DNA of 64,000 nucleotides. Source: Pachysolen tannophilus NRRL Y-2460. Taxonomy: Eukaryota. This document shows, piece by piece, positions 20,838-45,711 of the stretch. Every line of letters starts with the position of its first letter. Positions within the stretch are counted from its first letter, which is position 1. Location of the stretch: contig KV454011.1 in assembly GCA_001661245.1 (NCBI GenBank), forward strand, positions 1,142,724 through 1,206,723. Direction: 5' to 3'. Below the pieces are notes generated by a model that was not told the origin of the DNA, made no database searches, and saw only the letters and a program-made list of their open reading frames with translations. The translations under genes were made by a program, and so were the position numbers.

Positions 20838-20985
20838 TGCTTTATATATAAAATCAAGCAGTATTTTGTATAACAAAAAGGAAGACAAAGAGCACTCAAG
20901 TATCAGCAAGGATAGGAAGAAAATACGTACTTAGGTTGAGGTTGTGACTTAAAAAGTTTAAGGGCGAGGTTTATAAAGTTGTTAG

Positions 20986-23900
20986 ATGGGATCCAACAAT
21001 TTTGAGAAAGTTGATATCGACGTGTCGCTGCAGAAGAGGCATAACCGCTCTCCTTCTAACAAGGAAAATGAAGAGCTTTTACGACAAGGTTTTAAGAAGA
21101 TTAAACCTGCGGAAAATATAGCTATAGATCAGTCAGTTGGGTTTAATTCAGCTCATGCGTTGCCTGTAGCGAACCAGTCTGTGGTTTCAAATGAGAGTCT
21201 GAAAAATAGGTTGTTACCTCATTTCCATCATACTTCAGTTGATGATTACAAATCTAAAATGCATTCTCCAAGACCTTTACAAAAATTGAACAATGGCGCT
21301 AATGGTAATGGCAATGGCGGTGAGAAATCTTCTTTTGAAAAAGAGTTATTGCTTATGGCTAAGGAAAAAGAGCTTGAAGTTAGTGGTCGTATGGCGAATA
21401 AGGGAAGAAATAGAGAATATCAAAATTGGTCAAGACCACCGTTGGATCCTGATTTTGATCCTAAATTAAAAGACATTACTTTTCAGCAGTTAGATGCTGA
21501 GGAGACTACTATAAATTCTTTTTCAGCGGTTAGATTTTTTGGTGTTACTGAAGAAGGACATTCTGTGTTATGTAATGTTGTTGGGTTTTTACATTATTTT
21601 TACGTTCCATTACCAAAAGGTTTACAAAATTCTGATTTAAAAGATTTAAAAGCTTATTTAAATGAAAGATATCAAGGTGTTAGTAATATAGAAATTTCAT
21701 TTAAAGAAAGCATATGGGGTTATAATAATAATATGAAATTACCTTTTTTGAAAATAGTTGTTGATAATGCTAAATATGTTCCTAAATTGAGAAGTGCTTT
21801 TGAAAGAGGTGAAGTCCAATTTAAAGATTTGTTTCCCATTTCGGGACAAATGTCATTTGATAATATACAGTATTTGTTAAGAATGATGGTTGATTGTAAG
21901 ATCACAGGTATGTCTTGGATCACTCTTCCAAAGGATAAATATAAATTAGTGACGGATGAACTGTCCAAGATTTCAACATGTCAATTTGAAGCTTCAATAA
22001 ATTATCAGGATTTGGTATGTCATCCTTCAGATGGCGAATATTCTAAGATAGCTCCTTTAAGAGTTTTATCGTTTGATATTGAATGTACCGGAAGAAAAGG
22101 TATTTTTCCAGAACCTGAGCATGATGCCGTTATTCAAATAGCTAATGTTGTTAATACAACAGGTGATTCAACACCATTTGTTAGAAATGTATTCACTGTA
22201 AATACTTGTTCTCCAATTATTGGATCTCAAATTTATTCTTATATGACGGAAGAAGAAATGTTAATGAAATGGAGAGAATTCATAGTTAAAGTCGATCCAG
22301 ATGTCATTATTGGTTACAATATCTTGAATTTTGATTTACCTTATTTGATTAATAGAGCTGCAACTTTAAAACAACAGAGATTCCCATATTTTTCAAGGTT
22401 GAAAGCAGTAAAACAAGAAATTAAAGACACTTTTTTCCAATCTAGAGCATATGGTATGAGGGAAAATAAAACAATTAACATTGAAGGTAGAATGCAATTT
22501 GATCTTTTACAATTTATTCAAAGAGAATATAAATTAAGATCTTATACTTTGAATTCCGTATCCTCACATTTTTTAAACGAGCAAAAAGAAGATGTTCATC
22601 ATTCCATCATTGCAGATTTACAAAATGGTGATGCAGAAACAAGAAGAAGATTAGCAGTTTATTGTTTGAAAGATGCTTATTTACCTTTAAGATTGATAGA
22701 GAAATTAATGTGCTTGGTTAATTATACCGAAATGGCAAGAGTTACTGGTGTACCCTTTTCCTTCTTGTTAAATAGAGGTCAACAAATCAAAGTTATTTCT
22801 CAATTATTTAGAAAATGTCTTGATTTAGATATAGTTATACCCAATATGAAAAATGAAGGTGTTAATGAAGAATATGAAGGTGCCACCGTTATTGAGCCTA
22901 TTAGAGGATATTATGATGTTCCAATTGCAACATTGGATTTTGCATCTTTGTATCCATCTATTATGATGGCTCATAATTTGTGTTATACAACATTGTTAAA
23001 TAAACAAACCATTGATAGATTAGGTTTAGTGAAAGATAAAGATTACACCTTAACACCAAATAATGATTATTTTGTTAAACTGCATTTGAAAAAAGGGATA
23101 TTACCTACAATTTTACAAGAATTATTACTGGCTAGAAAGAGGGCAAAACAGGATTTGAAAATAGAAACTGATCCTTTCAAAAAGCAAGTTTTAAATGGTA
23201 GACAATTGGCTTTGAAAATTTCAGCAAATTCCGTTTATGGTTTTACAGGTGCCACTATCGGTAAGCTACCCTGTTTAGCCATCTCATCTTCTGTTACTGC
23301 ATTTGGTAGAGAAATGATCGAACAGACAAAACAAGCTGTTGAAGAAAAATATACCAAACTGAATGGTTATGAACAAGATGCGGTAGTCATATATGGTGAT
23401 ACCGATTCTGTTATGGTCAAGTTTGGTCTTACCGATTTAGCCCATTGTATGGATCTAGGTAAAGAGGCAGCTGAATACGTTTCTCATAAATTCAAAGATC
23501 CAATCAAATTGGAATTTGAAAAAGTTTATTATCCTTATTTATTAATCAACAAAAAAAGATATGCTGGTTTGTTTTGGACAAATACTAAATCACCGGATAA
23601 GATGGACACTAAAGGTATTGAAACCGTTAGAAGAGACAACTGTAGATTGGTACAACTTGTAATTACCAAAGTGTTGGAATTAATATTATACGAAAGAGAT
23701 GTTGTAGGAGCACAAGAATTTGTTAAAAAGATGATTGCAGATTTACTACAAAACAGGGTCGATTTATCTCAATTAGTTATTACTAAAAAATTATCAAGAC
23801 AAGATTATACAGCTAAACAAGCACATGTCGAATTGGCTGAAAGAATGAGAAAAAGAGATGCCGGTTCTGCTCCAACCCTTGGTGATCGTGTACCTTTTGT

Positions 23901-24468
23901 CATTATTAAGAATTCTGGTGGTAAGAATTATGAAAAATCCGAAGATCCATTGTACGTTTTAGAGCATTCTTTACCAATAGATACGAAATATTACCTAGAT
24001 AACCAATTGTCGAACCCAATAATGAGAATTTTCGAGCCAATATTGGGAGAATCCAAGGCTAAAGAGTTATTAACGGGAGAACACACGAGAACTAGAACTA
24101 TGGGTTCATCTGCGGGACTGTCTTTGGCCAATGGTGCATTGGGGGGTTTACTAAAATTTGCTAAAAAGAGAGAAGTTTGTAAAAATTGCAAATCTCCCCT
24201 AGATCCAAAAACTAGTAATGGTGTTCTTTGTACCAATTGTATATCCAATGCTCCTAGACTTTATGCCGATGAGTTGGCCAAACTAAACATGTTGGAAGTG
24301 AAATTTTCCAAGTTATGGACTGAATGTCAACGTTGTCAGGGATCATTACATCAAGAAGTTTTATGTTCTAATAATGACTGTCCTATTTTTTACATGAGAA
24401 CAAAAGCACAGAAGGATGTGACCCAACAATCGCAAGAATTAGCCAAATGGGATGAAACGCTGTGGTAG
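20986..24468 (+). CDS. POL3: DNA polymerase delta catalytic subunit
   Basis: Exo [33 protein letters not shown], and C-terminal CysA (CKNC...CTNC) and CysB (CQRC...[10 protein letters not shown]). Confidence 0.98.
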
Positions 24469-24649
24469 GTAGTTTTTCAATTATTTATTTTCTTTTTTAA
24501 AATATAAACTGAACTGTAAAAAAATATCTGATTCAAAATTCAGTAGAATTTATAAGTAATTCATATATTTAGAAACGATTTAGCTATGAAAAATAAACCT
24601 ACAGACATTTTATATATATATATATATATAATTTATTAAATTTTAGAAA

Positions 24650-25726
24650 TTAAAGCAACCCTAAATCCTGCAATCTTGTACAACTTGGTAATTCAATGGC
24701 CTCAGCTTTTTTCAATTTTTCCTTATTAACAAATAAAATACCATAACTATCTTCAATTGCTCTATTTTTATAATTTTCTTCTCTATTGCATTTAACTTTT
24801 AAATCATTGATGTATACATTTTCAATTTTCTTATCCAATAGACTTAATTTTGCATTATTTTTATTATTTTCTTTTTTATTTTTATCTTCATACCCTCCAT
24901 AATCGGTGAATGTCTTTTCATTTATATAGTAAGGGATATGGAATCTTGATGTAACCCGCTCTACAGGTAACGATGGCTGGGGCTCAAATGAAAACTTTGG
25001 TAATGTACTCTTTGAATGAAGATCATCGTTACCAGCAAGCAAGTTTGAAATGAGAGGTATCAACAAGAATAGTATGAGCGGGAAGAATTGTCTAAAATTC
25101 TCCTTTAACAGTTGCAATGGAGTTTGGGGTTCCGTACGCTGACGCTGTTGCTGCTGCTGCTGCTGTTGACGCTCTCTCTGTCTTTGCCGCTGCTGCTGCA
25201 GATAAGAATTATAACCAGCAGGCCCACCGAAATGGAATGTAAACCCATTTCCATTTCCAAATGCAAAAGAGTTACCACCACCATTAAATAAGAAATTTAA
25301 CAAATCATCTTCCATGCCAAAAGGTGAAGCTCCTCCCATAGATGCTCCAGAACCAAATGGATTTCTTTGAAATGGAAATTGTGTTCCTCCTGATGCAAAA
25401 GGAGAATCTGCAAATCCACTACTAGAACCAGTACCCATTCCTCTTGAATCTGGATCAGATCCTGTTTGATCAAATATTCTCTTTTTATCAGGATCATTCA
25501 ATACTTCAAATGCTTTCGCTAATTTTTTAAAAGCTTCAGATGATTTTGGATGATTATTCTTATCAGGATGAAGTTTTATCAGTAATTTTCTATATGATTT
25601 TTTAATTTCAGAATCTGTCGCTGTCTTTTGAATGTCCAATATCTTATAATAATCAGTTTTATCAATCGATAACAACTTCAATACTATTGTCTCTTGTTCT
25701 TTTGTATATGACTTCTCTGATGACAT
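24650..25726 (-). CDS. HLJ1: ER-membrane J-domain co-chaperone (Hlj1/DNAJB12 type)
   Basis: J domain with HPD, G/F-rich region, one TM segment and a lumenal C-terminal domain (CNRE...LPSCTRL). Confidence 0.85.
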   Translation of the reverse strand: MSSEKSYTKEQETIVLKLLSIDKTDYYKILDIQKTATDSEIKKSYRKLLIKLHPDKNNHPKSSEAFKKLAKAFEVLNDPDKKRIFDQTGSDPDSRGMGTGSSSGFADSPFASGGTQFPFQRNPFGSGASMGGASPFGMEDDLLNFLFNGGGNSFAFGNGNGFTFHFGGPAGYNSYLQQQRQRQRERQQQQQQQQRQRTEPQTPLQLLKENFRQFFPLILFLLIPLISNLLAGNDDLHSKSTLPKFSFEPQPSLPVERVTSRFHIPYYINEKTFTDYGGYEDKNKKENNKNNAKLSLLDKKIENVYINDLKVKCNREENYKNRAIEDSYGILFVNKEKLKKAEAIELPSCTRLQDLGLL

Positions 25727-26233
25727 CTTTTCCTTTCTATTTGCTTTGAAAAAAAAAACAAAAAATAATAAATAAAAAAATTGGATTTTGCTATGAATTA
25801 ATTAATTATTTAGTCTTGCCTAGTTGAAATAAAAAGAATAAAATGCCAGGTAAATAAAATAATTTTTTGAAAAAAGGAAATGAATCGCAAACAACTAAAA
25901 AACAAAAAATTAAAAAAATGAAGAGCACAACAAAGAGAAGATAAGATATTTCATATATAAATATATATATATTTATATGTCTATGGGTAATAAATCTTTC
26001 TTCAATCTGTTTAATGATATCAGATTAGATAGATATAGATACAGAAATTGTTGGTCGTTTTCTGATTTTTTTTATTTTTATTTTTTTTTCATAGTGTTTT
26101 GATGGCGAAAAAAAAAAGAAAAAAAAAAATTCAATTTTTCAAACTACAACGACGACAACTACAACGAAAATGGATTAAATTGTTATCTACAATTAGTTGA
26201 AATAAATAATTCCATTTGAATGGAGGTTTGACT

Positions 26234-27694
26234 TTACACGATATCACCATCTTTGTATGTTTTACCCTTGACGAATTCCAAGTCTTCGCCTTTATAACTG
26301 GTAAGACTTGAAACTTCTACCAATGAATTTTCATTATCTAATTTCCCGCCATTTTGTAAGATCCATTTAGTACCTAATTTTAAACTATCAAGTCTAGCAG
26401 ATTGAGGACTATCTATTGGAATTTCAGGTCCATTTTTTAAAGGTGAGAATTCTTCATGTCTATCAACTTCGAGACAACCAAATTTCGATAATGGTATTGA
26501 GGGGAAAACATCAAATATAAATTGTTCCAATTTAATAGCGTTTGGTTCAATTGGAGTAATTTTTGTATTTGGGTTTTGTGGATTTAAGACTGATACTTTT
26601 TTTTTAGCAATATGAAATGGTAAAAATTCTTGAGATTTTATCCATTTTGGAATTTCTTTTTTCAAAAGATCAACACTATAATAATGATTAACAATATTTG
26701 CAGCTTTTAAATATAAATTTCCATTTTCATCTTGTTTTTCTGATAATTCTTTTGAAATTTCTGAATATTCAATAACACATGGACAATTTCTATCTGTATC
26801 TAATACAATTAAACCAACTTTTTCTGATGCATTTCTTTTTCTAACAACTTTTGTAGATAAATCATATTTATTTCTTGCAGACCATCCAATAAATGTAGGA
26901 TCAGCAACTCTTGCAAGACAATTATCAACACAATACATATGAATATGTTTAATATTTTTTTGGTCAAAATCTTCAAGTAATTTTGAAGAATAAATACCTT
27001 TATATAACCCACCATTACCATCAGGACTTTCACAAATTGAATTTTTTGAATTGAGTAAAATTTTAGATCCATCAATTGAAAAACAAGGAAATGTTCCTTG
27101 ATTGAAAAAAATAATATGATTTTTATTTAATCCAAAATAATTATTATCAATAAAATAATTTTCTGTAATTTTCCTTGTAGCAATCGAAGTCATAATATAC
27201 CAAGTTACTCTTGCATTGTTATTATGGAAAGTTTCATTTGACAATTTAACAACTCTCATGATTTTTTCGGCTTGAATTTGAAATAAAGATTTATGTGAAG
27301 GTAAACCAATATCATAACAACCTTTTGGAGCACACGATCCTAACCTTGAACCTTGACCACCAGCCATCAAGATAACACCAACCTCACCTCTATTAATAAG
27401 CTCTAAACCTTCGCGCTCCCACTGAGCAACATTCTCTGCTGGCTCTTCTAATAACGACGAATGACTTTGAACAGGTAATGGCTTGAAATTCCTCAGCATA
27501 GAACAATTTGATTTACTAAAATTGATAGCCTTTTGTACCGTTGAAACCAATTCCAAAGGATCTTCAAACTGTGAAAGCTGACTCAAAAACTCAGACTGTT
27601 CCTCAAGTGACAATTCATCCCAATAAGCAAACAAATGCTCTTGATTTGCATCAATATATTGCTGTTTTATATCGGCGGTTAACGAAGAAGGCAT
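26234..27694 (-). CDS. QRI1: UDP-N-acetylglucosamine pyrophosphorylase
   Basis: LMAGGQGSRLG..PKG, SPDGNGGLY, YCVDN, IKLEQFIFDVF, EFSPLKN. Confidence 0.96.
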   Translation of the reverse strand: MPSSLTADIKQQYIDANQEHLFAYWDELSLEEQSEFLSQLSQFEDPLELVSTVQKAINFSKSNCSMLRNFKPLPVQSHSSLLEEPAENVAQWEREGLELINRGEVGVILMAGGQGSRLGSCAPKGCYDIGLPSHKSLFQIQAEKIMRVVKLSNETFHNNNARVTWYIMTSIATRKITENYFIDNNYFGLNKNHIIFFNQGTFPCFSIDGSKILLNSKNSICESPDGNGGLYKGIYSSKLLEDFDQKNIKHIHMYCVDNCLARVADPTFIGWSARNKYDLSTKVVRKRNASEKVGLIVLDTDRNCPCVIEYSEISKELSEKQDENGNLYLKAANIVNHYYSVDLLKKEIPKWIKSQEFLPFHIAKKKVSVLNPQNPNTKITPIEPNAIKLEQFIFDVFPSIPLSKFGCLEVDRHEEFSPLKNGPEIPIDSPQSARLDSLKLGTKWILQNGGKLDNENSLVEVSSLTSYKGEDLEFVKGKTYKDGDIV

Positions 27695-28380
27695 ATTCTT
27701 TTTTTTTTTAACTCCAAAAAGTTTCTTAATGCAACTCTACCTTAGTATTCCTATTTACACCCAGAGACCTAGCTCCAGTTCAATTAATAATAAAATCAAT
27801 AATATATAATATGATATACACCCCTTTTGTCAATTAATAAAACAATTATATATTTTAAATAAATTATTACTTTTTACGTGTTGTTGTTGTTGTTTTTTTG
27901 TTTTGTGATTTTTTAAGATTTTTTGTGATGGTCGTCAACTTCCTAAAATGACCCTTTGATATTTGGAAGACGACTACGATTTATCTAAAACACTTACCAA
28001 TCAGATAGATTGATTGAGAGATGGATAGATGAATACCTAAGTAGTAAGAGACAGATGATGAGACCGAAGAAGAAAACTGTTATTAGGGTCAAGAGTGTGG
28101 CTAGGTATTTTATGGCAAAGTTTGTTAGAAAGAGAACGGGGAGGAAGAGAGAAGTAAAGAATCGAGTTATTAAAAGAAATACTAATATATCGAACCCATT
28201 CAACTTTAAGATAGTTAGTTCTGGAACATTGAATGAGAAACTGAATTTGGGAATGGATTAGAAAATAGTGATAGAGTCAGGTACTAATAGTGTAAAAGAC
28301 GGGTGGTTTAAAATTCACAGCAAACTTTTTATTATTATTTTTTTTTTTTTTTTTTTGTTTTCATATAAAGTGAAATAAAT

Positions 28381-29889
28381 TTATAATAAAAATCCAGTAT
28401 TGACATGAATAGCTTTTGCCTGTGTATAAGTGTTCAAACCGTAATCACCCAATTCTCTTCCATGGCCACTCATCTTTACACCACCAAATGGAACGTGGAA
28501 ATCTGAATCATTAGAAGAATTAATCCAAACCATTCCTGCTTCAATTGCATCTGCAACTTTAAACAGTTTTGAATTATCCTTAGTGAAAACTGCAGCTCCA
28601 AGTCCATATTCTGTATCATTTGCTAATTTGATAGCTTCTTCTTGAGTTTTAAATTTACCACAAACAACAACTGGACCAAAAATTTCTTCTCTAACAATTC
28701 TCATTTTATTATTAACATCACTAAAAATTGTTGGTTCAACAAACCAACCTTGAGAATATTTATCTTCTAAAGGTTTTGATCCACCTAATAATAATTTTGC
28801 ACCTTCTTTTTTACCTATTTCAATATATTCCAAAATTTTATCTCTTTGTAATTTTGAAACTTGTGGACCAACAACAACATCTTTATGTTCAAATGGTAAA
28901 CCTTGTTTATATTCTTGTTTAACATGAATTACATATTTATTTAAAAATTCTTGATAAATTTCTTCTTCAATATAAATTCTTGAAGTTGAAGTACAAATTT
29001 GACCCATATTTGAAAAAATTCCAATTGCTGCCCATTTAACAGCTTGATCTAAATCACAATCTTTGAAAACTAATAAAGGAGATTTACCACCACATTCTAA
29101 AGTAACAGCTTTTAAAGTATCTGATGCTAATTTTTGAATAATTCGACCTGTATGAGTACTACCTGTAAATGCAATTTTTCTAACATCTTGATGAGTTGCT
29201 AAAGCAGAACCAGCAATTGGACCAAATCCACTAATAAAATTAACAACACCTGGAGGGAAACCAGCTTCTAATATTAATTTACCAAAATATAAAATACTTA
29301 ATGGAGTATTTTCAGCACTTTTTAATACTAAAGTATTACCTGCAGCCAAAGCAGGTGCAATTTTCCAAATTGCCATTCCTAATGGATAATTCCATGGTAC
29401 AATTTGCCCCACAACACCAAAAGGTTCATGTTTAGTCAAACACCATTTATCCTTATTTATTGGAATATATTCACCATGACTTTTATCTGCCCATCCAGCA
29501 TAATATTTTAATACACCAATACATTCATCAATATCGAAAACAGCATTAGTTTCTAATGGTTTACCACTATCAAAGGCCTCAATTTGAGCAAGAATATCCT
29601 TATTGGCCTTTGTTAACTCATACAACTTATATAACAAATCACCTCTTTCAGATGGACTAATTGAATCTTTCCAAACATCATAAAAAGCCAGTTTCAGCGC
29701 TTGTACTGCCTTATCAACATCTAACTCCTCAGCACATTCAACAGAACATATAACTTGTCCAGTAGCAGGATCAATTGAATCAATCAAATTACCCTTTGAG
29801 CCGCAGACATATTCATTATTGATAAATAGTCCCGTTGGTTGTAAGTATTTAGTACCATTTGGTAAAGTAATTTCAACTTCTTTAGACAT
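28381..29889 (-). CDS. Cytosolic NAD(P)+ aldehyde dehydrogenase (Ald2/Ald3-like)
   Basis: PWNYP, FTGST, LECGGKSP, NMGQICTS, EEIFGPV, PFGGVKMSGHGRELG; no presequence. Confidence 0.93.
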   Translation of the reverse strand: MSKEVEITLPNGTKYLQPTGLFINNEYVCGSKGNLIDSIDPATGQVICSVECAEELDVDKAVQALKLAFYDVWKDSISPSERGDLLYKLYELTKANKDILAQIEAFDSGKPLETNAVFDIDECIGVLKYYAGWADKSHGEYIPINKDKWCLTKHEPFGVVGQIVPWNYPLGMAIWKIAPALAAGNTLVLKSAENTPLSILYFGKLILEAGFPPGVVNFISGFGPIAGSALATHQDVRKIAFTGSTHTGRIIQKLASDTLKAVTLECGGKSPLLVFKDCDLDQAVKWAAIGIFSNMGQICTSTSRIYIEEEIYQEFLNKYVIHVKQEYKQGLPFEHKDVVVGPQVSKLQRDKILEYIEIGKKEGAKLLLGGSKPLEDKYSQGWFVEPTIFSDVNNKMRIVREEIFGPVVVCGKFKTQEEAIKLANDTEYGLGAAVFTKDNSKLFKVADAIEAGMVWINSSNDSDFHVPFGGVKMSGHGRELGDYGLNTYTQAKAIHVNTGFLL

Positions 29890-30585
29890 TATCTATCTCT
29901 CTTTTTTTTTATTGTTTTATACTTAGTATAAGTAAGTAAGATCTTATATTGAAAAAAAAAAAGCAAAAATAAAAATAAAAAAAAAAAAAAAAAAAAAAAA
30001 AAATTACTATCGGCTTAATTAAATATCTTTTCAAAGATCAAATACAAAATAATTAACTATCAAGGGTTTAAAATTTAACAATTTTTAGAGAGATTTCTTG
30101 ATTTATTAAGATAAAGTGCATTCGCTGCAGTAAATTCAGTTTCTTGTCTTGTCTTGTCTTGTATGTATTTGTCTTGTACTTGCCTTTTTAGGAAAGATTA
30201 TTATTATTGTTTTTTTTTTCTCGAATAAAAATTCCGCCCTATTGTCTGATAAGCAAAAAGTCTGCTTGGCATTTCCGAACTGAGGCCTCCGCAAGATTTT
30301 TTTCCACCTTGGAATTCCCCCTCAATTTAGCCGCCGATATAATATTAATAAATAATTATATAAACCATTTCTGTTGGATTTATTTAGATTTTAAAAAAAA
30401 TTCCTTTACTTTATAGATGAGTTGATTTACCTATGATTTATCCATCTATTGATCCATCTATCATCTATCGATTATATATTTCAATTTTTGAAACAATGCG
30501 TTGTTTCCCCTTACATGAGAGCTGAGCTTTTTCTTTTTTTTTTTTTGTTCTAATGTAGAGTTGGGATATTTAAACCAATAAATAA

Positions 30586-30599
30586 TGCCCAATTAGGCA
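30586..30599. promoter_or_regulatory. Mcm1/MADS-like palindrome in the divergent ALD-NIK1 promoter
   Basis: TGCC-CAATTA-GGCA fits the CC-N6-GG pattern. Confidence 0.35.
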
Positions 30600-30728
30600 A
30601 TCACAATAGTGTATAACCTCTTTTTCGTTGGGATTTTTCTGTCTTTTTAAAACTTTTAATTTAAAAGATAATTTGATTGATTTTGCTGAGGAAAAATTGA
30701 TTTTTTTTTTCTTTTCTTTCGTCGCGCT

Positions 30729-30731
<3 letters not shown>

Positions 30732-30760
<29 letters not shown>
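30732..30760. repeat. (TA)n microsatellite
   Basis: Perfect TA dinucleotide run in the NIK1 promoter; similar runs occur in many intergenic regions. Confidence 0.9.
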
Positions 30761-30762
<2 letters not shown>

Positions 30763-31068
30763 TAAATAATATATATGTGTTTTAAAAATAAACAAGCAGG
30801 GGTATTAAAATAGTTATTATATAGATATTTATATATATAAATATTTGATTTGATTACTGAATTATTTATTTATTATTAGATTTTTTTTCTTTTCATTAGT
30901 TAGTTAGTTAGATTGTTGTTAGATCGATTGAATTATTGAAAAGAAAAGGAATTTTTATTATTATTATTAGACAAAGCATAGAGGAGAAATTTTTTTTTTT
31001 TTATTTTTTTTTTTTTAACTAGACAATATCATATTATTAATAATAGACAAGGAAGGAGTTTTGAAATT

Positions 31069-34000: not shown

Positions 34001-34575
34001 AACCAAATTTATTAGTTCAAACTATTTCAAAATCCATCCATAATATCAATCAGTTGAAAGAATTATCTAAACACCAAAGTAATAGAATGTCCAATTTTGC
34101 CAAATCTGTTTCAAATCATACAAGTAAAGAATTGAATAATCAGCAGCAACAACAGCAACAAAATCAGCATAATAGCAATCGCCAACGTTTCCATGATAAA
34201 TATTCTCCATTGGTCAGCGTATCAAGCGGTGGAAGTAACAATGGAAGCAGCTCAGATTTACACCAACAATCTGTATCCGCCAATATATCCGATATACACG
34301 GTGAGGATTATGGAAGAATGTCTTTAGAGTATAATTCAAATAATAACATGTCTTTATCTGATGTCTCAATGGGTGAAGAAAATCCATCTCTGGAAACTGC
34401 CACAGGTGACACTGAAACTCTTGGTCCTCATAATAATTCCATGAAAAAGAGACCAAATCCATTAGCTTCAAATAGAGGTAGAAGTGTCACAGAAAGTTAT
34501 GTATCTACTGTGAATGGAATAAATAATAATAATAACATTGTCAGTCCAACAAAGAGAAAACTCAGTGAAGATTGA
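31069..34575 (+). CDS. NIK1: Group III hybrid histidine kinase
   Basis: Tandem ~92-aa HAMP-containing repeats (five AxGD[LF] units), H-box [13 protein letters not shown]1/F/G2 boxes, receiver domain LAEDN...DVQMP...SKP. Confidence 0.96.
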
Positions 34576-34929
34576 AGAGAAGAGAGGTTATTTTAGTTTG
34601 TGTATATGTCTTTTATTGAACTATTTTTTTTTTTTTCTTTACTATTTTTGCTATTAATATCTTTTGATCTTTCAAAAACCGAATTTTTAGAGCTTTATGA
34701 ATATATCATCATATTTCATACAAGTATTATTAGTATTGTTACTTTTTATTTAGAATTATTTTTTTTAGCTTTTAAAAAGGAATTGATGTATATAATAAAT
34801 AAATCGCTAGATGAGAATGTATTTTTGCTGAAAAACTGGAAAAAACAAAAAATAATTTTTTTTAAAATAAAAGAATCTATTCAAGTTATTTATTATTATG
34901 ATTACTAGGACTAGGTCTCTGATAATAAG

Positions 34930-36498
34930 ATGTTCTTGAAAAAAGTAAAGGGACAGCTAATAATTAGACAGTTCTCTCAACTGATCCTGTTTTCAAATAA
35001 AAATCAAGAAACTTTTAAATTTCTAAAAGATTATAAGTTAAAATGTGGATTAGAGATCCATACTCAGTTAGATACATCGAAGAAATTGTTTTCATTATCA
35101 CCGACTTCATTTAATGAGAGACAAAATACTAGAGTATCTTATTTTGATGTCTCTTTACCTGGAACGCAGCCGAGATTGAACCCAGAAGCATTGTTATATA
35201 CATTGAAAGCAGCAGTTGTTCTTAATTCCAAGATAAACCCCATCTCCACATTTGATAGAAAACATTATTTTTATGGAGATCAACCTTTAGGATATCAAAT
35301 AACACAGCATTATAATCCTATTTCCAAAGGAGGATATATCACTTTAACCAAAGAGTTTGATGAAATTAATGAGGTACAAAAAATCATTAACATTGAACAG
35401 ATACAAATAGAACAAGATACTGGGAAATCAATGTATAAGAATCAAGATGGGAATTCTCAAATCGATTTAAATAGAAGTAATATGCCCTTGATAGAGTTGG
35501 TAACAAAACCAGATTTTGAAGATTTAAAACAAGTAAAGGCATTTATCAAAAAATTTCAATTATTATTCAAAATTTTGAAGATATGTACAGGTGATTTGGA
35601 AACAGGTGCTATTAGAGTAGATGTTAATCTTAGTGTTAACAATGGTGAAAGAATTGAAATCAAAAATTTATCTAGTACATCAGCAATCTTGAACGCTATC
35701 AAGTATGAATATAATAGGCAGGTGGAACTAATTAAACAAGGCAACCCTATAATTTCTAAAGAAACAAGAGGTTGGGATGGTTTCCAAACAGTGAAATTAC
35801 GGAACAAAGAAACTGCTGTTGATTATAGATATATGCCAGATCCAGAGTTACCTCCAATTGTATTAGATTTGGCTGATTTAATACCAAACATTTCTTCAAA
35901 CATACCAGAATTACCCGAGGAACAATTATTAAAATTATCATCTAAACCTCATAATTGCAAATTAAGAGATTCTAGAATTTTGGTTCAAAACCAACCATTA
36001 TTAAACTATTACCTAACATTATTTGAATTATTGAAAGAACAAAATATCAAAAATTTAGACAAATTATCAGTCAATTGGTGTTGTCATGAACTCCTAGGAG
36101 CATTAACAAAACTAGACTTAGAATTTGACCATAACCTCTTACCTGCTACAAAATTAGCAGAATTAATCATACAAGTTTCCCACAAAGCCATAACCAACAA
36201 CAACGCAAAACTTCTCTTATTGCACTTGCTAAACAACAAAGAAGACTTGAACAAGTCAATACCCGAATTAATTGAAGAGTACGAATTAGGAATGGATAAA
36301 CTCTCAGAACAAGAAATTGTGGAATTCATCGATGAAGTCTTAAAAGACCCAAAAAATTCAAAGATAGTAGAAACCATACAACGTGGAGAGAAGCCAAAAT
36401 CAATCAACTACCTCATAGGGCAATGCATGAGACTCAGCAGTGGGAAAGTCGACTCCAAAGTGTTTGAACACCACTTGACCAAGAGGTTCAAGACATAG
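34930..36498 (+). CDS. PET112: Mitochondrial Glu-tRNA(Gln) amidotransferase subunit B (GatB)
   Basis: GLEIHTQL, FDRKHYFYGDQPLGYQITQ, IQIEQDTGKS, DLNR, RVDVN, DYRYMPDPELP. Confidence 0.95.
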   Translation: MFLKKVKGQLIIRQFSQLILFSNKNQETFKFLKDYKLKCGLEIHTQLDTSKKLFSLSPTSFNERQNTRVSYFDVSLPGTQPRLNPEALLYTLKAAVVLNSKINPISTFDRKHYFYGDQPLGYQITQHYNPISKGGYITLTKEFDEINEVQKIINIEQIQIEQDTGKSMYKNQDGNSQIDLNRSNMPLIELVTKPDFEDLKQVKAFIKKFQLLFKILKICTGDLETGAIRVDVNLSVNNGERIEIKNLSSTSAILNAIKYEYNRQVELIKQGNPIISKETRGWDGFQTVKLRNKETAVDYRYMPDPELPPIVLDLADLIPNISSNIPELPEEQLLKLSSKPHNCKLRDSRILVQNQPLLNYYLTLFELLKEQNIKNLDKLSVNWCCHELLGALTKLDLEFDHNLLPATKLAELIIQVSHKAITNNNAKLLLLHLLNNKEDLNKSIPELIEEYELGMDKLSEQEIVEFIDEVLKDPKNSKIVETIQRGEKPKSINYLIGQCMRLSSGKVDSKVFEHHLTKRFKT

Positions 36499-37163
36499 CT
36501 AGTAATGAATGCTCCTAATAAGAAAGAGAAAGAAAGGCGGTCGTGTAGATAGTAACCAATTACCCGCTTTTGCGACGGCTCAGCTTATCGCATCTTTTGT
36601 GTACAGCTAGATTAACAAAAAAAAAACATAATTATAAATATATTTATGATGTATATAATATAATATAATATAATAAAATAATATAATATATTTATAATAT
36701 ATTTATGATATATATATATATATATAGTATAGTATATTCGTTTATCTATTGATTATTAGGAGGTAAGTTTATTGTATTTTAATATAGTTGTTAATTGATT
36801 GATTGGTAGTTCTATTGATTTTTTTTTTGTGAGGGTGAGCTTTATTTGTAATAAAAAAGAGATTTAATTACTGAATGCATGGTGCAGCGCGTAGTATTAT
36901 TGCCACTGACAACAAGAAGATTTCATAACAAAGATTGATTAATACATCCAATCAATTCAAGATACTAAATTTTTTATTTTTTTTTCTTTCTAATTTCAAT
37001 TATTGAAAGGGTTTATTTTTAAATCATTTTGATTATTGTTGATTGCTGTTTATTTATTCAGATTTAACTAACATTTTTTATAATAATAAAAAATTTAAGT
37101 GATTTTTATTAATTTATCTTATCGTTATTATTATATATATATATATACAGTCCAAAAACAAAA

Positions 37164-37541
37164 ATGAGATCCCAATTTAAAGATGAACACCCTTTTGAAA
37201 AAAGAAAGGCGGAAGCAATGAGAATTCGTTCTAAGTTTACAGACAGAATTCCTGTTATTTGTGAAAAAGTTGAGAAATCGGATATTCCAGAAATTGATAA
37301 GCGTAAATATTTGGTTCCATGCGATTTAACAGTTGGTCAATTTGTTTATGTTATTAGAAAGAGAATTAAATTACCAAGTGAGAAGGCCATTTTCATCTTT
37401 GTCAATGATATATTGCCCCCAACTGCAGCTTTAATGTCTAGCATTTACGAAGAACATCATGATGAAGATGGATTTTTGTATGTGTTATACAGTGGTGAAA
37501 ACACTTTTGGTGAATTGGAAGGTGTTGAAGAAATATTATGA
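37164..37541 (+). CDS. ATG8: Autophagy ubiquitin-like protein Atg8
   Basis: [42 protein letters not shown] followed by a 9-aa tail after the conjugated Gly. Confidence 0.98.
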
Positions 37542-38186
37542 GTCAGATATAGGAGGAGGTTAGGGTTCCTATTATAATTTGTTGTTGTTTAGTTAAATTT
37601 TTTTTTTTTTTTTATTATTATTACTTTATTTTATTTTATTTTATCCATTTAAAGTTCTCTTATATTAAACCCTAATGAGGTTAATAACAGCTTTTTTTTT
37701 TTTTTTTTTTTCTATAATTTTTTGTATCAACAGTCTTGGGGTTTATTCTTGATAGTCGTTTTGTATTTCTTCATTTCTTTTATTATTTTCTTCTTTTTTT
37801 TTTCTTTCTTTTATTGAATGATTGGGATTTGGATTAAATTTTTATATTTACTTTTAAAACATGCGTACTTAAGTTATAGCTGTTTTCAAGTATATTTATT
37901 ATCATCACATTCAATATTTGGTACTAGCGAGTTACTAGTTTTTTTTTTTCTTATATACACAAACACATTGAATATTCGATAATACTACAACAAGAAATTA
38001 GACCATCATTTATCTATTCTAAAACTGGATAAATTGGTTTATGTTTTTTGATAATTTTTAATCTTTTGTATATGTAATGTATAAGCGTGTACCTTGAAAA
38101 AGTTGAAAATTCATAAGAACACCTAAATCATTATTAATAGTCAATAAATATATTTTCATTAGAGAGTTGTGGTTATCTAAAAATAT

Positions 38187-41108
38187 ATGAGAGTGACCAT
38201 GAGAATTTATTCGTTAAATCAATTTCTTTCGATTGGGTTGCTTCTAGTATTATTTTTAGTTATTCCAACGGAATCTGTTAAATCTTATTTATTTAAGAAA
38301 TGTGATGAATCTTCCTTTTGTCATAGAAATCGTTTTTTTGCAAATTCGATTAAATCATTAGGTGATTCGAATTATAAACCAATTTATAAAATTGATCCAG
38401 ATTCTTTTGATATTGATATCATTAGGTCTTCTTTTAAAGGTGATATCATCAAGACTTTAAATGATGGTCAAACAGAAGTTGTATTACCTTTTGAAGTCAA
38501 TATTTTAAAAGATAATAATATAAGATTAAGAATTGATGAATTAAACAGAATTAATGGGAAAATACAAGTAGATAATAATCGTTTGACAAAGAGAAGGTTT
38601 AATGAAGCTTATAAATATGCTTTTAAAGATAATGGGAATGTTGAATTGTTGGATAAAGATGTTGAATTAAAATTTGAAAAATTTGATGATAGATTAGAAT
38701 TAACTTATGGTAAAAATTTAGAAAATTGTTTAAAAATTTTTTATTATCCTTTTAAATTAGTTACTTACTTGGATGATAAAGAAGTTCTGGTAATCAATGA
38801 TAGAAATTTCTTGAATGTTGAACATTGGAGACAAAGACAAGAAAATGATACTCTTAATTTATCTCCAGAAGAAACTGATTTTAATTTATTCCATGATTCT
38901 TTTAAAGATTCCAAAAATGATAAGTTACCATTTGGACCTGAATCAATTGGATTAGATGTCTCTTTATTACAAATTGATACTGTTTTCGGTCTTGCTGAAC
39001 ATTCTTCAATGAATTTACAGTTGAAAGATACTTCAGAAACGGATCCTTATAGATTGTTTAATGTTGATATATTTGAATATGAAACAGAAAGCCAATTTCC
39101 TATGTATGGTAGTATTCCATTTATTATGGGTGTTCGTGAAGATTATAGCGTTGGTGTATTTTGGGTTAATGGTGCTGATACCTGGGTCGATGTTAATAAG
39201 ATCTATGATGGGGACGACGTTAATGAACAACGACAACAACAACAGCAGCAGGTTTTATCTTCAAAGAAAGAAAAGAAAACTTCAACCCATTGGATGTCTG
39301 AAAATGGTATTATTGATTTGGTTATCATGGTTGGCAAGACCCCATCTGAAGTTAATTCGAAATATGGACTAGTTACTGGATTTACAAAATTACCTCTGCT
39401 TTTCTCATTAGGATATCATCAATGTCGCTGGAATTATAATGACGAAGAAGATGTATTGAATGTTCACCAAAACTTTGATATTTACAATATCAGTTATGAT
39501 ACCATTTGGTTGGATGTTGAATATACAGATTCAAAGAGGTATTTTACATGGAAAGATCAATTGTTTTCAGATCCAATTGGTATGGTAAATACTTTAGATG
39601 AAACTGGTAGGAACTTGGTTGTTATTATTGATCCGCATATAAAAGCTGATTATTTTTTAAGTGAAGAAATTGAAAAACGTGGTATTGGTATTGCAAATTC
39701 CGATAATGAAAAATGTTATCATGGACATTGTTGGCCAGGTGAAAGTGTTTGGATAGATACTTTTAATCCTAAAGCTAGAGAATATTGGATCACTTTATTT
39801 AAAAATTCAACTACTGGAAATAATTTTATTGGAAGTGCTTCCAATATTCATATTTGGAATGATATGTCAGAACCATCAATTTTTAATGGGCCTGAAACTT
39901 CTGCACCTAAGGATCTTGTACATTATGGTGGTTGGGAACATAGATCCATTCATAACATTTATGGGTTGACTTTCCATGAGGCAACATATGAAGCATTACA
40001 ATTAAGATTTGCCAATGAAAATAAGAGACCTTTTATTTTAACAAGATCTTTTTATAGTGGATCTCAAAGAACAGTTGCAATGTGGACAGGTGATAACAGG
40101 TCAAAATGGGAATTTTTAAAACTTTCGATTCCAATGAATTTAAACCAAGGAATTGTTAATTTCCCATTTAGTGGATCTGATGTTGGTGGGTTTTTCGGTA
40201 ATCCTTCTAAAGATTTATTAACAAGGTGGTATCAAACCGGTATTTTCTATCCATTTTTCAGAGCCCATGCACATATAGACTCTAGAAGAAGAGAACCTTG
40301 GCTTATTGGTGAACCTTATACATCTATAATTAGGGATTTGATAGATTTGCGTTATAAACTTTTACCTGTATTATATACTGCATTTTATGAAAATTCCATC
40401 AATGGGTTACCAATAATGAAACCAGTTTTCTACGAACATCCTGAAAACCCAGAAACATACTCTATTGATGATGAATTTTTCTTATCGGATAGTGGATTAT
40501 TAGCAAAACCAATAGTGGAAGAAAATTGTGTTCAAACGGATATTTATTTCCCAGATGATGAAATTTATTACAACTTCTTTGACTACTCAGATCACATACA
40601 AGATGGTCCTAAAAGATATACTATTGATAAAGTCTCATTAGAAACTTTACCATTATTCATTAAAGGTGGAAATATCTTAACAACAAAGGAAAGACACAGA
40701 AGATCAACCAGATTGATGAAATACGACCCATATACTCTAACAGTAGCATTAGATAAGGAAAACAATTTTGCAAAAGGAAAGTTATACATCGACGACGGAG
40801 AAACATTCAATCATGAATCAAGCAATGACTACCTCATCGCACAGTTTGAATACTCGAATAACCAACTCAAATCATCAATTTTCACAAAAGACAATTCAAA
40901 TCAACCTCTTGTTCAAAGCTTAAATACAATCAAAATTGAAAAAATTAAAATCATTGGTTCAAAGCTTAAATACAAGAGCAAAAAAGCAAAAGTTTCCCAG
41001 GATGGCAAAGAATGGGAGGTAGACTTGATCGACAACTCAGACCACTACGTCGTCAGAAACCCAGGCGTCGTCGTCGGTAAGCAATGGATTATCACTCCTG
41101 TTGTCTGA
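38187..41108 (+). CDS. ROT2: ER glucosidase II alpha subunit (GH31)
   Basis: Signal peptide, FKKCDESSFCHRNR, LGYHQCRWNY, WLDVEY, WNDMSEPS, WTGDN, FFRAHAHIDSRRREPW. Confidence 0.95.
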   Translation: MRVTMRIYSLNQFLSIGLLLVLFLVIPTESVKSYLFKKCDESSFCHRNRFFANSIKSLGDSNYKPIYKIDPDSFDIDIIRSSFKGDIIKTLNDGQTEVVLPFEVNILKDNNIRLRIDELNRINGKIQVDNNRLTKRRFNEAYKYAFKDNGNVELLDKDVELKFEKFDDRLELTYGKNLENCLKIFYYPFKLVTYLDDKEVLVINDRNFLNVEHWRQRQENDTLNLSPEETDFNLFHDSFKDSKNDKLPFGPESIGLDVSLLQIDTVFGLAEHSSMNLQLKDTSETDPYRLFNVDIFEYETESQFPMYGSIPFIMGVREDYSVGVFWVNGADTWVDVNKIYDGDDVNEQRQQQQQQVLSSKKEKKTSTHWMSENGIIDLVIMVGKTPSEVNSKYGLVTGFTKLPLLFSLGYHQCRWNYNDEEDVLNVHQNFDIYNISYDTIWLDVEYTDSKRYFTWKDQLFSDPIGMVNTLDETGRNLVVIIDPHIKADYFLSEEIEKRGIGIANSDNEKCYHGHCWPGESVWIDTFNPKAREYWITLFKNSTTGNNFIGSASNIHIWNDMSEPSIFNGPETSAPKDLVHYGGWEHRSIHNIYGLTFHEATYEALQLRFANENKRPFILTRSFYSGSQRTVAMWTGDNRSKWEFLKLSIPMNLNQGIVNFPFSGSDVGGFFGNPSKDLLTRWYQTGIFYPFFRAHAHIDSRRREPWLIGEPYTSIIRDLIDLRYKLLPVLYTAFYENSINGLPIMKPVFYEHPENPETYSIDDEFFLSDSGLLAKPIVEENCVQTDIYFPDDEIYYNFFDYSDHIQDGPKRYTIDKVSLETLPLFIKGGNILTTKERHRRSTRLMKYDPYTLTVALDKENNFAKGKLYIDDGETFNHESSNDYLIAQFEYSNNQLKSSIFTKDNSNQPLVQSLNTIKIEKIKIIGSKLKYKSKKAKVSQDGKEWEVDLIDNSDHYVVRNPGVVVGKQWIITPVV

Positions 41109-41259
41109 ACAGACCTTCAAAATCTCACACGACTTTTTTTTTGGTGAACAATTTTTTTTTTTCATTTTTTCATTTTTTTTCATTTTTTTTCACGAGGTGG
41201 TGTTGAGCAGAGTTTTTGAGTCATCTTTGTTGTAGGCTAAAGTTTGTTTTAACAGAATA

Positions 41260-41294
<35 letters not shown>

Positions 41295-41314
41295 ATTATT
41301 ATCTCTATATATTA

Positions 41315-41386
41315 ATGTCTCTTGGCAGATACAATTATTTTTATAAAGGTATCAGTTTGTTGAATAGTTATAATCTTTTGAGCATT
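41315..41386 (+). CDS. VAS1: Predicted upstream exon encoding the mitochondrial targeting peptide of VAS1
   Basis: ATG at 41315 plus 24 codons (MSLGRYNYFYKGISLLNSYNLLSI), then GTAGT-type donor GTAAGT at 41387; splices in frame to 41520 (KRSFSIDHFK-M). Confidence 0.75.
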
Positions 41387-41519
41387 GTAAGTTTTAACCA
41401 CGGATTTTTTTCTTTAAATTAATATTTGAAGATTTCTTTTCAAGTTTTTTATAAAAATTTTTTTTTTTTTTTGCTTTTTGATTGATTATTGTTTCTAATA
41501 TTGAAAAAAAAAAATCTAG
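41387..41519 (+). other. Predicted intron (133 nt, phase 0) at the 5' end of VAS1
   Basis: GTAAGT donor, TTCTAAT branch-like site at 41493-41499, TAG acceptor at 41517-41519; branch-to-acceptor spacing is similar to the other introns in this window. Confidence 0.75.
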
Positions 41520-41549
41520 AAGAGAAGTTTCAGTATTGATCACTTCAAG

Positions 41550-44500
41550 ATGAGCGAGGGACAAGGAACGGTTCCTGAACAACAGGTTTTGCAAGCTGGT
41601 GAGGGCAAAGGTCCTAAAAGTGCAAAGGAGTTGGAAAAAGAACGTAAGAAGGCTGAAAAATTAGCTAAATTTGAAGCTAAAAAGCAAAAGCTGGAAGCTT
41701 TAAAGAAGAATCAAGAAGCCAATTCTTTGAAAAAAAAGGAAAAAGTTAAGAAGGGATCAGTAGAAGAACCAGCGGGAGAATTTTTGGATCAGACTGTTCC
41801 TGGTGAAAGAAAAATTTTACTTTCATTAGAAGATCCATCATTGAAAGCATATAATCCTAAAAATGTTGAATCTTCTTGGTATGAATGGTGGGTTAAGGAA
41901 AAATTCTTTGAGCCAAAGTTTACTGAAGATGGTAAAATCAAGCCAGAAGGTTTATTTACAATTCCAGCACCTCCACCTAATGTTACCGGTGCTTTGCATA
42001 TTGGACATGCTTTAACTGTTTCACTTCAAGATGCTTTAATTCGTTATAATAGAATGAAGGGAAAGACAACTTTATTTTTACCAGGGTTTGACCATGCAGG
42101 AATTGCCACTCAATCTGTTGTTGAAAAAAACATATGGGCTAGAGAAAAGAAAACTAGACATGATTATGGTCGTGAAGCATTTGTAAAGAAAGTTTGGGAT
42201 TGGAAAGATGTATATCATGCTAAGATTAAATCACAATTCCAGAAAATGGGTGCATCATATGATTGGTCCAGAGAGGCATTTACACTTAGTCCTCAATTAT
42301 CAAAAGCTGTTGTGGAAGCTTTTGTTAGAATGCATGAAGATGGTACAATTTATCGTGCTTCAAGATTAGTAAATTGGTCAGTTAAATTAAATACCGCTAT
42401 ATCTAATTTAGAAGTTGATAATAAAACTATTCCTGGTAGAACTTTATTATCTGTTCCAGGTTATGATAATCCAATTGAATTTGGTGTCTTGACATCTTTT
42501 GCCTATCCAGTTGTTGGATCAGATGAAAAATTGGTTGTTGCTACAACACGTCCAGAAACTATATTTGGTGATACTGCAGTTGCTGTTCATCCAGATGATC
42601 CTCGTTATAAACATTTACATGGTAAATTTGTTCAGCATCCATTTATAGATAAACAAATTCCAATCATCACCGATTCAGAGGCTGTTGATATGGAATTTGG
42701 TACTGGTGCTGTTAAAATTACTCCAGGACATGATACTAACGATTATAATACCGGTAAACGTAATAATTTGGAATTTATCAATATTCTTACAGATGATGGT
42801 AAATTGAATGATGAATGTGGACCTGAATGGAGTGGTATGAAGAGATTTGATGCTCGTGCTTTAGTTATTGAAAAATTAAAAGAAAAAGGATTATTTGTAG
42901 AACAAAAAGATAATGAAATGACAATTCCAACTTGTTCAAGATCTGGTGATGTTATTGAACCTTATTTGAAACCACAATGGTGGGTTTCTCAGAAAAGTAT
43001 GGCTAGTGAAGCAATTAAAGCTGTTAAAGATGGAAGAATTACAATTACTCCTAAAGTATCTGAAGCTGAATATTTCCAATGGTTGGAAAATATTCAAGAT
43101 TGGTGTATTTCAAGACAGTTATGGTGGGGTCATAGATGTCCTGTTTACTTTGTTAGAATTGAAGGTCAAGATAATGATCCAAATGATGGTGAATATTGGG
43201 TTAGTGGTAGATCTTTAGAAGAAGCAGGCATTAAAGCACAAAAGAAATTCCCTGGTTTGAAATATACTTTAGAACAAGATGAAGATGTCTTGGATACTTG
43301 GTTCTCGTCTGGTTTATGGCCTTTTAGTACATTGGGATGGCCTGACAAGACTCCTGATATGGAAATGTTCTCACCAATGTCCTTATTAGAAACAGGTTGG
43401 GATATATTATTCTTTTGGGTTACAAGAATGATTTTATTAGGATTGAAATTAACAGGGGATGTTCCATTTAAAGAAGTTTTCTGTCATTCTTTAGTTCGTG
43501 ATGCCCAAGGCCGTAAGATGTCAAAATCTTTGGGAAATGTTGTTGATCCAATTGATGTTATTACTGGTATTTCTTTAGATGAATTGCATAAAAAATTGTA
43601 TGTAGGTAATTTAGACCCTAGGGAAATTGCCAAAGCTACTGAAGGTCAAAAAGAATCTTATCCAAATGGTATTCCAGAATGTGGTACTGATGCATTAAGA
43701 TTTGCCTTATGTGCTTATTCTACAGGTGCTAGAGATATTAATTTGAATATTTTAAGAGTTGAAGGTTATAGAAAATTCTGTAATAAGATTTATCAAGCTA
43801 CAAAATTTGCCTTGATGAGATTAGGTGATGATTATAAACCACCAGCTTCTACTAGAATAACAGGTAATGAATCACTTGTTGAAAAATGGATTTTACATAA
43901 ATTGACTAATACAGCTAAGAAATTAAATAATGATTTAGACAATCGTGAATTTGGTGAAGCTGCTAATTCAATTTATCAATTCTGGTATGATGTATGTGAT
44001 GTTTATATTGAAAATTCTAAATATTTAATTGTTGAAGGAACACCAGAGCAACAAAAATCTGCAAAAGATACTTTATATACATGTATTGATGAAGCTTTAA
44101 AAATGATTCATCCATTTATGCCATTTATTACTGAAGAAATGTGGCAAAGATTACCAAGACGTGAAAATGATACAACAAAATCTATTGTTATTAGTAAATA
44201 TCCAGAATTTCTTGCTGAATTTGATGATTTGGAAAGTTTGAATGCTTATGATTTAATATTAGAAGTTACTAAAGGTTCTAGATCATTACTTTCGCATTAT
44301 GGTATATTGAAAAATGGTAAAGTATTTGTCGAATCATCAAATGAAGATATTTTTAAAATTGTTTCTGAGCAAAGAAAATCGATTGTATCATTAATTAAAG
44401 CTGTTGATGAAATTTCTGTTGTTAAAAATATAAAAGAAATCCCAGCAGGATGTGCTTTAGCAACAATAAACATTGATTGTAATGTTCATGTCTTGGTCAA

Positions 44501-44723
44501 AGGTGCTATTGATATTGATGGAGAAATAAAGAAAACTGAATCCAAATTGGCTAAAGTCTTGAAACAAAAAGAAAATATTGAAAAGACAATAAATTCAAAA
44601 GATTATTCTGAAAAGGCAAATACCCAAGTTCAAGAACTGAATAAAGAGAAATATGAAAAGGCATTAGCTGAAATTGATGGATTGAACGCAACAATCAGTA
44701 ATTTAGAAAAATTGAAGTTATGA
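41550..44723 (+). CDS. VAS1: Valyl-tRNA synthetase (cytosolic form start)
   Basis: PPPNVTGALHIGH, GFDHAGIATQ, DWCISRQLWWGH, KMSKS and a C-terminal coiled coil. Confidence 0.98.
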   Translation: MSEGQGTVPEQQVLQAGEGKGPKSAKELEKERKKAEKLAKFEAKKQKLEALKKNQEANSLKKKEKVKKGSVEEPAGEFLDQTVPGERKILLSLEDPSLKAYNPKNVESSWYEWWVKEKFFEPKFTEDGKIKPEGLFTIPAPPPNVTGALHIGHALTVSLQDALIRYNRMKGKTTLFLPGFDHAGIATQSVVEKNIWAREKKTRHDYGREAFVKKVWDWKDVYHAKIKSQFQKMGASYDWSREAFTLSPQLSKAVVEAFVRMHEDGTIYRASRLVNWSVKLNTAISNLEVDNKTIPGRTLLSVPGYDNPIEFGVLTSFAYPVVGSDEKLVVATTRPETIFGDTAVAVHPDDPRYKHLHGKFVQHPFIDKQIPIITDSEAVDMEFGTGAVKITPGHDTNDYNTGKRNNLEFINILTDDGKLNDECGPEWSGMKRFDARALVIEKLKEKGLFVEQKDNEMTIPTCSRSGDVIEPYLKPQWWVSQKSMASEAIKAVKDGRITITPKVSEAEYFQWLENIQDWCISRQLWWGHRCPVYFVRIEGQDNDPNDGEYWVSGRSLEEAGIKAQKKFPGLKYTLEQDEDVLDTWFSSGLWPFSTLGWPDKTPDMEMFSPMSLLETGWDILFFWVTRMILLGLKLTGDVPFKEVFCHSLVRDAQGRKMSKSLGNVVDPIDVITGISLDELHKKLYVGNLDPREIAKATEGQKESYPNGIPECGTDALRFALCAYSTGARDINLNILRVEGYRKFCNKIYQATKFALMRLGDDYKPPASTRITGNESLVEKWILHKLTNTAKKLNNDLDNREFGEAANSIYQFWYDVCDVYIENSKYLIVEGTPEQQKSAKDTLYTCIDEALKMIHPFMPFITEEMWQRLPRRENDTTKSIVISKYPEFLAEFDDLESLNAYDLILEVTKGSRSLLSHYGILKNGKVFVESSNEDIFKIVSEQRKSIVSLIKAVDEISVVKNIKEIPAGCALATINIDCNVHVLVKGAIDIDGEIKKTESKLAKVLKQKENIEKTINSKDYSEKANTQVQELNKEKYEKALAEIDGLNATISNLEKLKL

Positions 44724-45638: not shown

Positions 45639-45711
45639 GATTAGACTGAAAAAAAATACTCTCTTGATAATTATATCTATTTCCCAATTTCCCAATACCC
45701 AATACAAAATA

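Follow-up and report, generated by a model that had tools for sequence, protein, structure and literature searches.

Pachysolen tannophilus has been reported to translate CUG as alanine, and an alanine tRNA(CAG), which has G3:U70 among its alanine identity elements and lacks a long variable arm, has been published for it (PMC4937558). According to the same report, of 907 CUG positions with full support in liquid chromatography with tandem mass spectrometry, 97.2% were alanine; the 5,288 predicted proteins hold 16,824 CUG positions, an average of 3.2 each, and such positions occur in 80% of genes; and the reassignment is found "mainly at conserved alanine positions". The CUG-Ala reassignment has been in print since 2016, and again in 2018 (PMC4937558, PMC5951914). 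According to the second of these papers, the Leu2 clade and the Ala clade, which comprises Pachysolen, Nakazawaea and Peterozyma, are the two sides of a deep division within Pichiaceae. Here, a 64-kb stretch of contig KV454011.1 (the window, by which the whole of the DNA analysed is meant) was examined for the way in which its genes read the codon CTG. The window almost certainly derives from a CUG-Ala-clade budding yeast with nuclear genes that are read under NCBI table 26, CTG (CUG) being alanine. The alanine signal in alignments, the exclusion of leucine, the phylogenetic position and the use of alanine in public annotation were all observed in the analysis, and are taken up below. An initial annotation of the window had come to the same reading.

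There are 77 in-frame CTG codons in the window, of which 36 were set against homologues, either in deep alignments or in printed PDB alignments. Deep alignments were made for DNA polymerase delta (POL3), Spb1 and valyl-tRNA synthetase (VAS1), with 119 homologues each, and for an aldehyde dehydrogenase (ALDH), with 136 homologues out of 150 listed, 14 having been dropped for a length outside 440–560 residues. All alignments were built with leucine at the CTG positions. The rejection of leucine that follows is therefore conservative, because alignments built in this way favour leucine matches. The seven CTG codons cited in the initial annotation were all found in frame where it had placed them, flanked by the residues that it quoted. 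Gene and codon coordinates are collected in Table 1.

Where a CTG codon lies in a conserved column, the residue opposite is alanine, never leucine or serine. The clearest columns are in ALDH, where residue 65 is opposite alanine in 129 of the 136 homologues (serine in 2, leucine in none) and residue 442 is opposite alanine in 108 (serine in 3, leucine in none). The third ALDH codon, at residue 67, lies in a variable column where alanine has only a plurality (A 31, R 23, K 19 of 136). Both residues 65 and 67 had been proposed to face alanine from a family motif AVxAAxAAF; this holds for residue 65 and not for residue 67, and the motif found is AVxAAxxAF. In the HLJ1-like protein, homologues were compared at residue 49, in helix II of the J domain. 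It is opposite alanine in 5/5 printed PDB alignments, with serine in 0/5 and leucine in 0/5, in agreement with the expected RKLAIKLHPDK; these five were printed out of 48 matches and represent four distinct proteins (DNAJB12, Ydj1, DNAJB1 twice, and dnj-12). The column at VAS1 residue 1030 is also mainly alanine (A 77, S 17, K 10, F 5, Q 4, T 2, L 2 and V 1; n = 119). Here the row for S. cerevisiae Vas1p reads KEANKSK, so that the EANK given for this protein in the initial annotation proved correct. The other CTG codon of VAS1, at residue 48, faces glutamine or lysine (Q 65, K 54). The VAS1 C-terminus was also compared with the PDB, and gave no match there.

The remaining columns are mostly variable. 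In POL3 the CTG columns vary, and leucine is almost missing from them. Residue 715 faces small residues (T 52, S 43, G 11, A 8 of 119), as had been suggested for it; the same suggestion for residue 792 does not stand, the column being largely lysine (K 84, A 19 of 119). Residue 699 faces S 36, D 36 and E 26, with A 6; residue 326 faces S 23, N 17, D 17 and A 10; and residue 1159 faces V 36, I 17, S 13 and L 9, while the columns at residues 72 and 1045 are nearly all gaps. In Spb1 (119 homologues), residue 223 faces P 39, G 29 and A 28, residue 278 faces K 97, residue 372 faces Q 97 and L 15, and residues 466 and 562 are mixed. The PDB alignments give a similar picture for the other proteins. 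Oxygenase residue 44 is opposite D/V and residue 54 opposite A/R; GGT residue 223 is opposite D/K; STH1 residue 532, a variable column, is opposite V/K; GH31 residue 404 is opposite Q/P; and Put2-like residue 511 is opposite K/M/V. Cwc15 residues 71, 79, 200, 201 and 205 are mixed. Rad4 residues 482, 492, 493 and 574 are opposite E, V, G and P in a single weak homologue, and its residue 277 fell outside the alignment. Overall, CTG columns are far less conserved than those of other codons, with a median share for the commonest residue of 0.39 versus 0.85. The initial annotation had proposed a tally of this kind, with attention to columns dominated by leucine or serine. No such CTG column was found, the highest serine share being 0.36, at POL3 residue 699.

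A formal profile score, similar in kind to Codetta, was then calculated for each candidate residue, by taking the logarithm of its weighted column frequency, with pseudocounts, and adding these values up across the CTG columns. The columns covered were those of the four deep alignments in which occupancy reached 50% or more, 16 in all, with position-based row weights. At a pseudocount weight of 0.1 alanine comes first, with lysine at −11.2, serine at −13.6 and leucine at −25.9 ln units, and the order is unchanged at weights of 0.05 and 0.2. As a control, the same score assigned the right residue to 53 of 53 other codons (each with at least 5 columns). A deliberately hard resampling, which mixed 3 conserved with 13 variable columns, returned the true residue in 1986 of 2000 draws for alanine and in 1991 of 2000 each for serine and leucine. 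Alanine remains first whichever protein is left out.

Leucine can be examined more directly. Its mean share of the homologue residues is 0.021 at CTG columns, versus 0.698 at the other five leucine codons of the same proteins, and 0 of 5000 resampled sets of leucine columns gave a share as low. A comparable check for serine uses the columns of the POL3, Spb1 and VAS1 alignments that are at least 80% serine. In their standard translation the window's proteins have leucine at 0 of 74 such columns (POL3 27, Spb1 18, VAS1 29), and there are other rows with up to 11.

Public protein records agree with the alignments. Ten of the ten window proteins tested against them carry alanine at every CTG codon spanned, which covers 33 of the 77 codons in the window. 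The POL3 record P0001 spans residues 124–1160 and, within that span, departs from the standard translation at the 6 CTG codons and nowhere else, with alanine at 6/6; the Spb1 record P0121 has the same length as the window's protein and differs only at its 5 CTG codons (5/5 alanine); and in the VAS1 record P0391 the two CTG codons, both alanine, are the sole departures from the standard translation. An exact-sequence look-up of table-26 translations found 7/7 (ALDH, HLJ1, oxygenase, GGT, STH1, CFT1 and Put2-like), in sources including NCBI and UniRef and on a contig of 2,514,465 bp, whereas standard-code translations of the same open reading frames (ORFs) were present in 0/3 cases. The record for the oxygenase has alanine at all three of its CTG codons, residue 257 included. 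The reassignment is therefore already recognised in the public annotation of this sequence. The suggestion that CTG is mistranslated here as leucine, with the novelty that it implied, falls away: the published annotation reads alanine. The CUG-Ala reassignment is already known, being published, having its own NCBI table (26) and being applied in public records, and its recovery from the window adds no new knowledge.

The phylogenetic position is also in keeping. The nearest named relatives of the window's POL3, Spb1 and VAS1, at 66–75% identity, are from Candida boidinii, Ogataea, Kuraishia, Komagataella and Debaryomyces. A tree was built for the single gene POL3 from 30 rows (LG+G4, rooted on Lipomyces/Dipodascopsis), among which there is no named row of the Ala clade. 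In it the window's protein pairs with one related protein, P0002, with a Shimodaira–Hasegawa approximate likelihood ratio (SH-aLRT) of 99, and the pair is nested in a set (SH-aLRT 99) to which Kuraishia, Komagataella, C. boidinii, Ogataea, Brettanomyces and Pichia also belong. This Pichiaceae-type set, including the window's protein, is sister to a set of Debaryomyces, Scheffersomyces and Candida maltosa, and Saccharomycopsis is far away on a long branch. The use of POL3 to place the species, which had been recommended, thus puts it next to yeasts of the Pichiaceae type and not within the CUG-Ser1 clade. The tree is consistent with the published position of the Ala clade, but does not assign the window to a named genus.

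We infer from the literature both the tRNA involved and the decoding at the level of protein. In the published mechanism, an ancestral tRNA-Leu(CAG) would have been lost, and an alanine tRNA whose anticodon had mutated to CAG, with its alanine identity elements kept, would be charged with alanine and read CUG. The CTG codons now present are mostly new since the reassignment. This explains why they lie mainly in variable columns, and in alanine columns where the column is conserved.

Several points weigh against decoding as alanine and need to be set beside the evidence above. The homologue rows are related and partly redundant, with many Saccharomyces rows in VAS1, and the raw counts overstate their independence. 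In variable POL3 columns serine can be commoner than alanine (S 43 versus A 8 at residue 715, S 36 versus A 6 at residue 699). Oxygenase residue 257 is opposite L and M in two distinct printed PDB homologues, and the reservation expressed in the initial annotation about this site (NIAD-CTG-LSYW) was well placed. GGT residue 167 is opposite I in the PDB alignments, and leucine fills 2 of the 15 cells compared for Cwc15, within a low-complexity stretch flanked by gaps. When ALDH is left out of the profile score, the lead of alanine is only 2.0 ln units over lysine and 5.2 over serine. A reverse substitution model, which takes the probability of the homologue residues given the query residue and averages it within each of 14 columns, has serine (−42.6) 1.8 ln units ahead of alanine (−44.4), and rules out only leucine (−59.7). 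Finally, the public records represent the choice of annotators and not the behaviour of the ribosome.

Another reading is very improbable: that a minority of CUG codons, or sites such as oxygenase residue 257 and GGT residue 167, are also read as leucine through a wobbling tRNA-Leu. If this were true the proteome would be partly stochastic, as has been published for Ascoidea asiatica. Ambiguous decoding on a larger scale, with alanine predominating and a substantial second residue such as leucine brought in by a wobbling tRNA-Leu(UAG), is likewise very improbable. Such decoding would suit the few CTG sites that are opposite hydrophobic residues, alignments are blind to minority decoding, and dual decoding of CUG is in print for Ascoidea (PMC6041473). 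Against this, alanine makes up 97.2% of the 907 supported CUG positions in the P. tannophilus report, the authors of which call its decoding unambiguous (PMC4937558), and three sites facing hydrophobic residues among 36 are what variable columns would give.

That CTG means serine, as in CUG-Ser1 (table 12) or CUG-Ser2 yeasts, is likewise highly unlikely. Serine is the commonest or second commonest residue in the variable POL3 columns at residues 15, 326, 699 and 715, and the averaged substitution model places it slightly ahead, as noted. The conserved columns, however, are nearly without serine (2/136 and 3/136 at ALDH residues 65 and 442, and 0/5 at HLJ1 residue 49), and the profile score of serine is 13.6 ln units below that of alanine. 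Standard-code translations of CUG-Ser yeasts have leucine at up to 11 of the columns that are at least 80% serine, whereas the window's proteins have none at 74. The POL3 tree sets the window's protein outside the Debaryomyces/Scheffersomyces group, and the public records carry alanine. The standard code, under which the alanine columns would be true substitutions of alanine by leucine in this species, is extremely unlikely: oxygenase residue 257 (L/M), Spb1 residue 372 (L in 15/119) and GGT residue 167 (I) would suit it, but it is opposed by the very low leucine share of CTG columns, which no resampling matched, and by a profile score of −25.9, it needs leucine in place of alanine at four sites where homologues have leucine in 0/136, 0/136, 2/119 and 0/5, and it is disfavoured even though the alignments were built in its favour. 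Decoding of CTG as alanine is thus the reading that we retain, with alanine in the conserved columns, alanine first in the profile score, the position in the POL3 tree and the public records all pointing the same way.

It had also been noted that CTG is rare. Numerically this is so: CTG makes up 77 of the 16,595 codons (0.46%) in 24 ORFs, averages 3.2 per ORF and is present in 23 of the 24. The number expected from position-specific base composition is 77.2. Since the count equals the compositional expectation, the rarity of CTG is no evidence on its decoding, and it was rejected as such. Two codons are scarcer in the same ORFs, namely CTC (29) and GCG (39). Counts of the triplet CTG within the ORFs are 391 for the +1 frame, 77 in frame and 23 for the +2 frame.

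The alignments also hold proteins from other yeasts that look mistranslated. Many rows, which are yeast proteins from automatically assembled public runs, have leucine at columns that are at least 80% serine in POL3, Spb1 and VAS1, up to 11 times per protein; it is found 11 times in the row P0103 and 7 times in P0233. Leucine at conserved serine columns is what a standard-code translation of a CUG-Ser yeast gives. The nearest relatives of the window's proteins have leucine at columns that are at least 80% alanine, once in P0002 and twice in P0392, and none at serine columns. Judged from these sequences, standard-code translations of CUG-Ser yeasts, and probably of CUG-Ala yeasts, persist in large protein collections. 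A separate observation concerns P0106, a full-length POL3 of yeast type, 68% identical to that of the window, which NCBI lists under the bacterium Kocuria palustris as a hypothetical protein. At 7 columns with a serine share of 80% or more, P0106 has leucine. From its sequence, P0106 looks like a contaminant from a CUG-Ser yeast in a bacterial assembly, translated with the bacterial or the standard code.

Reading CTG as leucine would put a wrong residue into nearly every protein (23 of the 24 ORFs in the window, with about 3.2 CTG codons per gene). The correct table matters for annotation, homology search and heterologous expression because CTG is present in nearly every gene. The practical value of the present analysis is as a check, in that the right code was recovered from the raw sequence of a 64-kb window.

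The window itself is AT-rich (30.4% G+C), with densely packed, intron-poor yeast genes. The ORF listing has 26 ORFs of at least 150 residues, of which 24 were used after removal of two antisense shadows. These two (Table 1) were left out of all counts and are most likely chance ORFs. Most of the ORFs were named by Pfam: Cwc15, Spb1, Put2-like ALDH, PIG-F, Rad4, AIM24, a zinc-cluster factor, GGT, POL3, the HLJ1-like J protein, UDP-sugar pyrophosphorylase, ALDH, a Nik1-type hybrid histidine kinase, GatB, GH31 glucosidase, VAS1, an RNase PH subunit, the 2OG oxygenase, STH1/SNF2 and CFT1. The Nik1-type kinase belongs to group III and has repeated HAMP domains together with HisKA, HATPase_c and a receiver domain. 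ARAGORN found 0 tRNA genes in the window and Rfam 0 families at gathering score, as had been stated for a tRNA(CAG).

The public gene model of POL3 may be cut short at its N-terminus. Record P0001 (1037 residues) begins at Met124 of an ORF of 1160 codons, and the 123 codons upstream contain two further CTG codons. Only about 11 residues of the record precede the part that can be aligned with S. cerevisiae Pol3, from residue 85 of the latter, and the yeast homologues listed are 1008–1132 residues long.

Table 1. Features of the 64-kb window referred to in the text, with coordinates in the window and the residue numbers of CTG codons in brackets.
Feature	Coordinates	Strand	In-frame CTG codons	Domains and remarks
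In-frame CTG set	278..63666	both	77 in 24 ORFs	
Aldehyde dehydrogenase (ALDH)	28381..29889	-	Three: 29697-29695 (65), 29691-29689 (67), 28566-28564 (442)	Pfam Aldedh, E 3e-169
HLJ1-like J-domain protein	24650..25726	-	25582-25580 (49), 25201-25199 (176), 25111-25109 (206)	Pfam DnaJ and DUF1977
Valyl-tRNA synthetase (VAS1)	41550..44723	+	41691-41693 (48), 44637-44639 (1030)	Pfam tRNA-synt_1
DNA polymerase delta catalytic subunit (POL3)	20986..24468	+	Eight, including 23128-23130 (715) and 23359-23361 (792)	Pfam DNA_pol_B
Spb1 rRNA methyltransferase	2377..4887	+	Five (223, 278, 372, 466, 562)	
2OG-Fe(II) oxygenase	46224..47267	+	46353 (44), 46383 (54), 46992-46994 (257)	PDB homologues thymine dioxygenase and SpoC
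Nik1-type (group III) hybrid histidine kinase	31069..34575	+	One in 1168 codons	
Antisense ORF inside Cwc15	529..1056	-		175 residues
Antisense ORF inside STH1	51323..51781	-		152 residues

The window can finally be compared with the reassignments of CUG known in budding yeasts. The CUG-Ser2 yeasts (Ascoidea, Saccharomycopsis) share with it the codon concerned, theirs being described as a third independent reassignment in budding yeasts (PMC5951914); they differ in the target, which is serine, or serine together with leucine in the stochastic case reported for Ascoidea asiatica (PMC6041473). In the CUG-Ser1 yeasts (Candida albicans, Debaryomyces, Scheffersomyces; table 12), a related group of budding yeasts, the same codon is reassigned and CTG also avoids conserved leucine columns. 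In these yeasts, however, CUG is read as serine by a tRNA-Ser(CAG), whereas the conserved columns of the window are alanine and its POL3 lies outside CUG-Ser1. With the CUG-Ala code of P. tannophilus and the Ala clade (table 26), no difference was found among the features compared from the window data, which were alignments, density, placement and annotation. In both, alanine is opposite CTG in conserved columns and CTG occurs mostly at non-conserved positions. An ORF of the window holds 3.2 CTG codons on average, and 23 of the 24 hold at least one, which matches the published 3.2 per protein and 80% of genes (PMC4937558). The lineage lies beside the Pichiaceae-type (Leu2) yeasts, and public records read CTG as alanine.

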